Assembly: GCA_030295235.1 (NCBI GenBank)
Contig: AP026124.1
Span: forward strand, 620,001 to 684,000
Source of the DNA: Fistulifera solaris
Taxonomy: Eukaryota
DNA: 64,000 bases
Reading direction: 5' to 3'
Below, piece after piece: positions 45,188-46,713 of the stretch. The notes below the pieces were generated by a model. That model saw only the letters and a program-made list of their open reading frames with translations. It did not search any database and was not told the origin of the DNA. A program made the position numbers and the translations under genes. Numbering within the stretch: the stretch's first letter is position 1; each line of letters starts with the position of its first letter.

Positions 45188-45555
45188 GGTCGTGCTTTTG
45201 AAGAATGTGAGAAAGCTTTGGAAGAACAAAAAATGTGATGTTTGTTCGCGTTCCGTGTCTCGCGAAAAAGTGGTTGACATCTCCCCTTCTGTGACTTAAT
45301 CTGCTACTCCGCCCGCCCGTGTGCAATCCTTTCCCGTTGAATGAATGATGGATGTGTACCGGTTGCGTGTCGCATAGGACATCTATTGAAAACGTGAGTA
45401 CTACGTTATGTGTAGCCGTAATGAGTCACACACGACAGCGACTGTTGATGCGCGATCTTTTCACTTTAACATTGCATCTCTATTATTTCATGACAAGGCG
45501 CACCATTTTAACGTGAAGTTCATTTAGTTACAACTCCGTACGACTCATATTCACC

Positions 45556-46518
45556 ATGTTTATGTCTACTGTGAACGCTGTTTTCACTCTTCTCTCTTAT
45601 GCTTCCATGGGTATGGCTTTTACGCCAAAGCCGATGCTGCAACAGACTCACGTCAGTACAACATCTCTCCAGATCGGGGGCATGTTTCAAAGTTTCTTTG
45701 GAAAAACAGATGCCGAAATTACGGACACTGTATTTTTTGATGTCAGTATTGGTGACCAGCCGGCGGGTCGCATCGAAATGGGACTTTACGGCAACGTAGT
45801 GCCCAAAACGACAGAAAACTTCAAGCAACTTTGCACCGGCAAGCCAGGATTCGGCTACGAAGGCTCAATCTTTCATCGCATTATCCCAGGTACGGGACTA
45901 TTGAATACAGTATCGTTGGATGAAAAAATGTAGTAACTCACACAATTTTTTGTTGCTTTCAGGTTTCATGTGCCAGTAAGAAACATTATTTTTGGTTAAT
46001 GTTGTTCGATCCGCCTCAACTCACACACCTTTTTGTTGTATCATATTTTCATCACGTAAATACTAATACTCTTAGAGGGTGAGTCAATTTTGCATCCAGG
46101 TATTCTTTAAAAGGTGTCTGACGAAAACGTCCCTGCAGAGGCGACTTCACGAACTTTAACGGAACTGGTGGTAAATCGATTTACGGAAAAACATTCGCCG
46201 ACGAGAACTTTGACATTGCTCACGGAGGTCCCGGTACTTTAAGTATGGCTAATGCTGGGCCCAACACGAATGGAAGTCAATTCTTTATCACGACAGGTAA
46301 GTGGCATAACGAACAAGGTTTTCTCGTCGACGACTCAGGACTAAGATGGAATGACTGCTTTTCTCCATCCAGGCGCTACACCGTGGTTGAACGGCAAACA
46401 TACGGTTTTTGGAAAAGTCACAAAAGGCATGGAGATTGTTCGAAAAATTGAGGCGAAAGGCTCTGAACTCGGAAGACCGTCGGCTGAAGTCAAGATTACA
46501 AAAAGCGGTGCTCTGTAA
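45556..46518 (+). CDS. Cyclophilin-type PPIase, plastid-targeted; 5 exons including 13-nt and 3-nt microexons
   Basis: Exons 45556-45889, 45963-45975, 46076-46078, 46139-46296 and 46373-46518 give FHRIIPGFMCQGGDFT...[18 protein letters not shown]...[12 protein letters not shown]. Signal peptide followed by MA-FTP. Confidence 0.93.
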
Positions 46519-46713
46519 ACGCTGCGCGTCAAACGAATACTTTCAATTACAGTATAGAAGATTGAGTTAGTAACAGTGTTCTTCTGTAGAGTTTTTAATA
46601 GCTATTTCGTCTTCAACGTGGGTTGTGTATGCAAAGGTATTTTGCAAGAAGTGGCCCTTTGATTCTCCATGTCGTGAAACTATCTCAGATTTCGACCACA
46701 TCAACTCGACTTT

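Follow-up and report, generated by a model that had tools for sequence, protein, structure and literature searches.

A transcript-supported three-nucleotide exon in a diatom cyclophilin gene (Fistulifera solaris)

The stretch of DNA analysed here, 64,000 nucleotides in length and called the window in what follows, carries on its forward strand, from 45556 to 46518, a five-exon cyclophilin gene of the nuclear genome of Fistulifera solaris, which we read from the sequence and joined by coordinates (all features of the window given below lie on this strand). Its four introns, with lengths of 73, 100, 60 and 76 nt, all begin with GT and end with AG. Exon 1 (45556–45889, 334 nt) holds the start codon ATG, encodes an N-terminal presequence along with the first third of the cyclophilin domain, ends in ATC CCA G, and is identified by a PF00160 match of 40.4 bits (profile positions 2–48) as well as by its 100% identity to a deposited protein of 116 aa (P0001). 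It is followed by intron 1 (45890–45962, 73 nt, GT..AG), a phase 1 intron within the Gly codon of IIPG, and by exon 2 (45963–45975), whose 13 nt encode (G)FMC together with the first two bases of a Gln codon and end in CA. Intron 2 (45976–46075, 100 nt, GTAAGA..TTAG) contains near its 3′ end a TACTAAT branch-point-like site (46061–46067), with the likely branch A at 46066, 9 nt before the last intron base, followed by a short pyrimidine stretch and the acceptor AG at 46074–46075. Exon 3, the microexon, consists solely of AGG (46076–46078), that is, the third base of the Gln codon and the first two bases of the first Gly codon of QGGDF. Directly behind it, intron 3 (46079–46138, 60 nt) opens with the donor GTGAGT (46079–46084), ends in GCAG and holds a CTGAC branch-point-like site at 46118–46122, 17 nt before its end. 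Exon 4 (46139–46296, 158 nt; PF00160 43.0 bits, profile positions 54–115) opens with A GGC GAC TTC and encodes (G)GDFTNFNG...FFITT(G), and intron 4 (46297–46372, 76 nt, GT..AG) separates it from exon 5 (46373–46518, 146 nt; PF00160 42.5 bits, profile positions 111–157), which completes the domain and closes with the stop codon TAA. The matches of the exon-1, exon-4 and exon-5 pieces all lie above the 21.7-bit cut-off of this profile, whose length is 159.

The ultra-short exon is embedded in the layout TACTAAT-N7-AG/AGG/GTGAGT, with canonical AG and GT flanks and the CTGAC of intron 3 downstream; on its upstream side the sequence reads TACTAATACTCTTAG/AGG/GTGAGT. An earlier note on this DNA had described a 13-nt exon ending in CA, a branch point, an acceptor, the three bases and a GTGAGT donor, all of which are present in the sequence where it had located them, and the start of the next exon with A GGC GAC was confirmed at 46139. 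Its claim that inclusion yields QGGD and skipping an in-frame QGD was borne out by joining the pieces: with AGG the coding sequence measures 654 nt and specifies 217 aa with QGGDF, and without AGG it measures 651 nt, remains in frame and reads QGDF. The frame is open only with the small exons, hence the 217-aa product, and since AGG completes the Gln codon and supplies two bases of the first Gly codon, it establishes the normal Q-G-G-D-F spacing of the family. Elsewhere in intron 3 (46097–46105), an acceptor-like CAG directly abuts a donor-like GTATTC in the manner of a ‘zero-length exon’; this site is probably unused, since the flanking pieces would measure only 21 and 39 nt. RNA structure in the region 45950–46160 appeared unremarkable (−42.4 kcal/mol, z −0.46, with 57 of 200 shuffles folding equally well).

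As regards the expectation by chance, the AGG at 46076 is the sole AG-NNN-GT in the 163-nt interval 45976–46138, and only AGG or GGG restores Gln-Gly. The heptamer AG[AG]GGGT, which restores both frame and residues, turned up in 192 out of 20000 163-nt pieces drawn at random from the window (∼1%), and in combination with a GTRAGT donor it occurs a single time in the 64-kb window, both strands taken together, at the 46076 exon. Two other AGG triplets, at 46098 and 46112, were considered as sources of the three bases and rejected, being without AG before or without GT after them.

Transcript evidence was drawn from three public runs of one study (X1–X3), whose kind (RNA) was guessed, not recorded, and whose assembled contigs, a type of data that drops rare isoforms and gives no inclusion levels, were aligned to 45450–46650. 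One contig of run X2 (record 10; 249 nt, depth 5.59), with 0 differences over 236 bases on the window, was placed at 45775–45891 and 46138–46256 with 13 letters ‘between’. Since 45890–45891 (GT) are equal to the first two bases of exon 2 and 46138 (G) to the last base of AGG, the 16 letters found between 45889 and 46139 correspond to the 13-nt exon plus AGG. The order in this contig is exon 1, the 13-nt exon, AGG and exon 4, the last covered to 46256, with introns 1, 2 and 3 spliced out; the aligner was unable to place the 13-nt and 3-nt exons. One assembled contig, from one run presumed to be RNA, documents the microexon in mature RNA, where it stands between the exons that flank it in the gene. 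The search of transcripts proposed in the earlier note, for the included junction (...TGTGCCAAGGAGGCGAC) versus the skipped one (...TGTGCCAAGGCGAC, also ...TGCCAAGGCGAC), met the predicted included junction in this contig with no mismatch, and found none with the skipped junction among the contigs of the three runs, which as assembled contigs drop rare variants. A second intron-removing joint in the same run, located at intron 4 (record 11, 46293>46370, cut +3, GT..AG), indicates that X2 holds spliced molecules; this contig is ∼8% off the window and probably represents the homeologous copy. Contigs ∼7–8% off the window were observed in X1 and X3 too, and fit a second, homeologous copy of the gene in an allodiploid organism. 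The unspliced genomic form appeared in X1 (record 6, 45711–46196). That contig contains one extra A behind 45922 in the A-run of intron 1, a homopolymer length difference.

The public record of this gene is truncated. A protein search with the exon-1 ORF returned 919 proteins at E ≤ 0.001 among 933 candidates, and the best match, P0001 (‘hypothetical protein FisN_1Lh305 [Fistulifera solaris]’), is 100% identical, counts 116 aa and ends in ...IIPGFMCQ. In this model intron 1 was removed correctly, exon 2 was read into intron 2, CA+G was taken as Gln, and the TAA at 45977–45979 as the stop codon; a stop at ...FMCQ locates the annotation failure exactly at the microexon. No full-length model of the gene was found among the exon-1 ORF matches of 75–242 aa, and both the second half of the gene and its homeolog were absent from the matches of the protein search with the exon-4 ORF. 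The anticipation that predictors and aligners would miss such an exon proved right on both counts, with P0001 cut at ...FMCQ and 13 letters left unplaced by the aligner in X2 record 10. Passages of PMC5935921 describe F. solaris as allodiploid or allopolyploid, and the other copy of the gene (P0003, 96% identical, 127 aa) is also deposited as a read-through product whose stop precedes the microexon; its tail matches the read-through of the window, which is consistent with the homeolog having kept the 13-nt exon along with its GTAAG donor. Likewise, in Amphora coffeaeformis the genome-derived P0117, compared to the transcript-derived P0115, has ‘MCQ’ swapped for 21 unrelated residues, so that another predictor failed at the same spot. 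This mismatch suggests that tiny exons or shifted splice sites were mis-modelled in a second diatom. P0117 is also without the ‘SQF’ found further on.

Read from its sequence, the gene product is a presequence-bearing, single-domain cyclophilin and a putative peptidyl-prolyl isomerase. The active-site stretches around Arg/Phe/Met/Gln, Ala-Asn-Ala...Gln-Phe and Trp-Leu...His, the residues listed for human cyclophilin A, were found in the translation, and the same stretches align between the diatom ortholog P0011 and cyclophilin D. Human cyclophilins D and A (PDB 4tot and 1ak4) belong to the same family PF00160, and P0011 matches cyclophilin D over the whole domain with an E of 8.9e-72, reading FMCQGGDF in the diatom versus FMCQAGDF in the human protein. 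Unlike the human cyclophilins, the diatom protein possesses an N-terminal presequence of ∼50 residues with a conserved A-F-x-P stretch, and its activity is predicted only. Within the presequence (45556–45700), the F and P of the A/S-F-x-P stretch, which follows a hydrophobic N-terminus, are kept in 12 of the 12 diatom sequences of alignment A1. This stretch resembles the motif at which signal peptides are cleaved in the plastid-targeting presequences of diatoms, and the cyclophilin may be plastid-directed.

Only with AGG included are the Gln and Asp of the Q-G/A-G-D stretch separated by two residues. Such a two-residue spacing was observed in 146 of 146 motif-spanning proteins, out of 239 fetched, and in alignment A1 the seven of 12 sequences that run through the motif all read FMCQGGD, then F or M. 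Scored with a profile of six full-length diatom orthologs (67–75% identical to the spliced product), the form with AGG reached 372.8 bits, compared with 364.6 bits for the form without it. The near-invariance of QGGDF put forward in the earlier note holds for the spacing, but not for the first Gly, which is replaced in the QAGDF of human cyclophilin D and in that of the relatives L036–L038. A first Gly that varies within a fixed Q-to-D spacing points to length, more than the identity of the residue, as the constrained feature.

Relatives of the gene were collected by a scan of metagenome contigs with alignment A1, which yielded 347 matches to the pattern, with 108 relatives confirmed; the 80 best of these 108 were classed by intron position. 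In 57 loci (56 by pattern, plus L066) the coding sequence runs uninterrupted from FHR to QGGD, although some of these may be transcript contigs. Four loci (L009, L010, L012 and L013), identical over 643–900 bases, have a phase 1 intron after CAA G, a position within the AGG of the window; two others (L011 and L072) have a phase 0 intron after CAG, and one (L041) an intron after CAG with a GC donor. Three loci identical over 900 bases (L036, L037 and L038) combine the intron-1 position of the window with an intron after CAG, and one (L006) bears its intron in the Asp codon (GGT GGT G/AC). Nine loci of another cyclophilin type, recognizable by HRVIK.DFMIQGGDF (L068, L070, L073, L074, L075 and L077–L080), share only the intron-1 position, which is also used in L036–L038 and L040, and in three loci (L019, L025 and L040) introns lie a few codons upstream. 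Counting the two of the window, there are five intron positions within nine coding bases. Several of these loci show small exons of their own. In L036–L038, a related diatom cyclophilin gene, a 14-nt exon (766–779 in L036) is the counterpart of the 13-nt exon of the window and is followed by a 31-nt exon (871–901), and L040 presents an 11-nt exon at 2844–2854, encoding (R)IIP(G), between an intron in an Arg codon and the intron-1 position of the window, in a contig that ends soon after. In the high-GC relative L041 (∼2683–2976), the intron at the Gln/Gly boundary starts with GCGAGT and is apparently a GC-AG intron.

The 13+3 layout itself appeared in 0 of the best 80 of 108 relatives, all drawn from metagenome contigs, and a pattern for the acceptor of the window had no match in the same best 80 of 108; the closest relatives, known by their proteins, are the homeolog P0003 (96% identity) and P0002/P0004 (82%). 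In the comparison of intron positions suggested in the earlier note, introns do sit at shifted positions around the same codons, but the layout of the window was not recovered, and it looks lineage-specific on these sequences. The deposited tails of P0005 and P0006, from a relative 70–76% identical, continue with FMCQG and then with the same six residues that come after IIPG in P0005. They are compatible with a 16-nt exon. The intron that they point to could lie after CAR G or after CAR GG. In P0005 (76% identical), YVPSVG follows both IIPG and FMCQG, so that two neighbouring introns seem to share their first ∼18 bases, a feature that hints at intron duplication. The read-through tails of P0121, P0124, P0139 and P0147 could also hint at acceptors beside the Gly-Asp codons, but are ambiguous.

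Intron 2 of the window itself contains a local duplication, which may be a trace of how this intron arose. The 3′ end of intron 1 with the first bases of exon 2 (45935–45970; branch region, T-run and CAG) recurs within intron 2 at 46018–46053 as a decayed copy in which the acceptor AG is lost. The two copies are identical in 29 of 36 aligned columns (74% over 35 nt ungapped), and their local score of 33 compares with a mean of 16.2 (sd 2.6) for dinucleotide shuffles, 0 of 2000 of which reach 33. Tandem Repeats Finder detected no tandem repeats in 45800–46250, and the other intron parts compared were similar only at shuffle level (the parts after the first and after the second copy, the 5′ parts of introns 1 and 2, introns 2 and 3, introns 1 and 3, and introns 1 and 4). 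A third copy of a 23-nt unit came up weakly in the repeat search and was dropped for want of further support. We tentatively consider, as a possibility short of an even chance, that intron 2 is young, and that an insertion copied 36 nt of the junction between intron 1 and exon 2 and split an older 16-nt exon into 13+3; this origin is based on one 36-nt repeat, and the remainder of intron 2 resembles nothing nearby.

Taken together, the data make it very likely that AGG is a genuine three-nucleotide spliceosomal exon, included in the assembled transcript and supplying the spacing of QGGDF; most likely, the exon is constitutive. Where an organism has short introns, pairing of splice sites takes place over the intron, and exon length is of little matter. 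The introns on either side of AGG, at 100 and 60 nt, are of this short kind, and both come with a complete set of donor, branch-point-like site and AG, which argues that splice sites would be paired across each intron (intron definition) and not across the exon. The three exonic bases would then simply be positions −3 to −1 of a strong AGG/GTGAGT donor. The distance from the branch A of intron 2 (46066) to the donor of intron 3 (46079) is 13 nt, and complexes assembled on a branch site and a donor 13 nt apart should collide, so that introns 2 and 3 are probably removed stepwise. Removal of the first of the two, whichever it is, would join AGG to a larger neighbour. Passages of PMC4674806 state that adjacent spliceosomes may be hindered in their binding when an exon is very small.

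Compatible with a genuine exon, but in our judgement quite unlikely, would be a regulated switch in which AGG is skipped under some conditions, giving, in frame, a QGDF protein whose active-site strand is shifted and which is inactive or altered in function, without triggering NMD. Skipping would by simple arithmetic preserve the frame (651 versus 654 nt), the exon is tiny and its branch-to-acceptor distance short (9 nt), and the 3-nt exons of animals treated in the relevant passages of PMC4674806 were alternative. Nevertheless, only the included form was seen, albeit in contigs that drop rare variants, the GTGAGT donor and the TACTAAT/AG acceptor are both strong, and a one-residue spacing occurs in 0 of 146 proteins of the family, which would leave a QGDF protein without natural precedent. 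Most coding microexons of plants are also mostly included, according to parts of PMC8831610. More improbable still is the extended proposal that conditional skipping of AGG turns off or re-purposes a probably plastid-directed foldase without mRNA decay, with a young, duplication-derived intron 2 having enabled the switch.

Even less credence is due to the idea that the extra bases arose through misassembly, or derive from a processed DNA copy or non-canonical sites, and not from 46076–46078. The evidence for inclusion is indeed a single contig of modest depth (5.59) from a run of guessed kind, and 46138 would accommodate the last G of AGG just as well; yet both sides of the contig match the window with 0 mismatches, versus ∼8% for the second copy of the gene, the extra letters agree in full with the prediction from the one canonical AG-NNN-GT that the interval contains, and they restore the universal Q-to-D spacing. 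The least probable reading of all takes the 116-aa model as right and the gene as decaying, so that this copy would make a truncated product only and the homeolog would do the work. It could appeal to the deposited model, which ends at the TAA of intron 2, to the allodiploid state of the organism reported in passages of PMC5935921, and to the expression of a second copy, as read from the contigs ∼8% different. It is opposed by the spliced contig of the same copy, which continues in frame into exon 4, by the intact state of the downstream exons, whose frame is open and whose Pfam matches are full, and by the canonical sites kept in all four introns. An included AGG exon is the reading that we retain.

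Exons of comparable size have been described in other eukaryotes. Arabidopsis APC11 contains a constitutive 1-nt exon, and the smallest alternative exon known at the time measured 3 nt, according to passages of Guo and Liu (2015, PMC4674806). As far as those passages go, the exon described here is like that of APC11 an ultra-short coding exon between ordinary spliceosomal introns, required for the right protein and mis-annotated in public records; the APC11 exon, in contrast, is 1 nt long, belongs to a land plant and was proven by reporter constructs, whereas ours is 3 nt long, belongs to a diatom and is documented by one assembled transcript contig. The same passages treat animal 3-nt exons, which are identical in size and also leave the frame intact whether included or skipped, but are alternative and regulated, and lie in long-intron genes under exon definition, whereas the introns of the diatom gene measure 60–100 nt and no form other than the included one was observed. 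More than 2000 plant microexons of 1–15 nt, many of them unannotated or mis-annotated, are reported in parts of Yu et al. (2022, PMC8831610), together with adjacent microexons of 5+12 nt in a rice transcript and GTRAGT donors beside the 1-nt exons of VPS55. On that portion of the paper, the diatom exon resembles plant microexons in its adjacent pair (here 13+3), its strong donor and its omission from annotation, but plant microexon clusters are conserved across land plants, whereas the diatom 13+3 was found in 0 of the best 80 of 108 relatives. Microexons of Drosophila have been catalogued as well, as parts of PMC8042270 indicate. In the literature that we searched, nothing linked microexons to diatoms or to a cyclophilin gene; the nearest was a paper on homo-repeats, judging by its title and abstract (PMC4891720), with micro-exon terms and a single mention of stramenopiles. 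Since plants and animals already have known exons of 1 to 3 nt, the diatom exon brings no new principle; what it adds is a transcript-supported 3-nt exon of a diatom cyclophilin gene, together with a corrected gene model and unusually mobile intron positions.

Our findings correct the public record of this gene from a 116-aa stump to a complete cyclophilin of 217 aa, and indicate that diatom genes can carry exons at the lower size limit, exons of a kind that defeats gene predictors and read aligners alike. As the Amphora model is wrong at the same three residues, more truncated or garbled diatom models of this kind are likely to exist. The varied intron positions, together with the duplication inside intron 2, make this a good locus for the study of intron gain and sliding. 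Moreover, it offers a compact natural example of how the spliceosome handles two introns that lie three bases apart.
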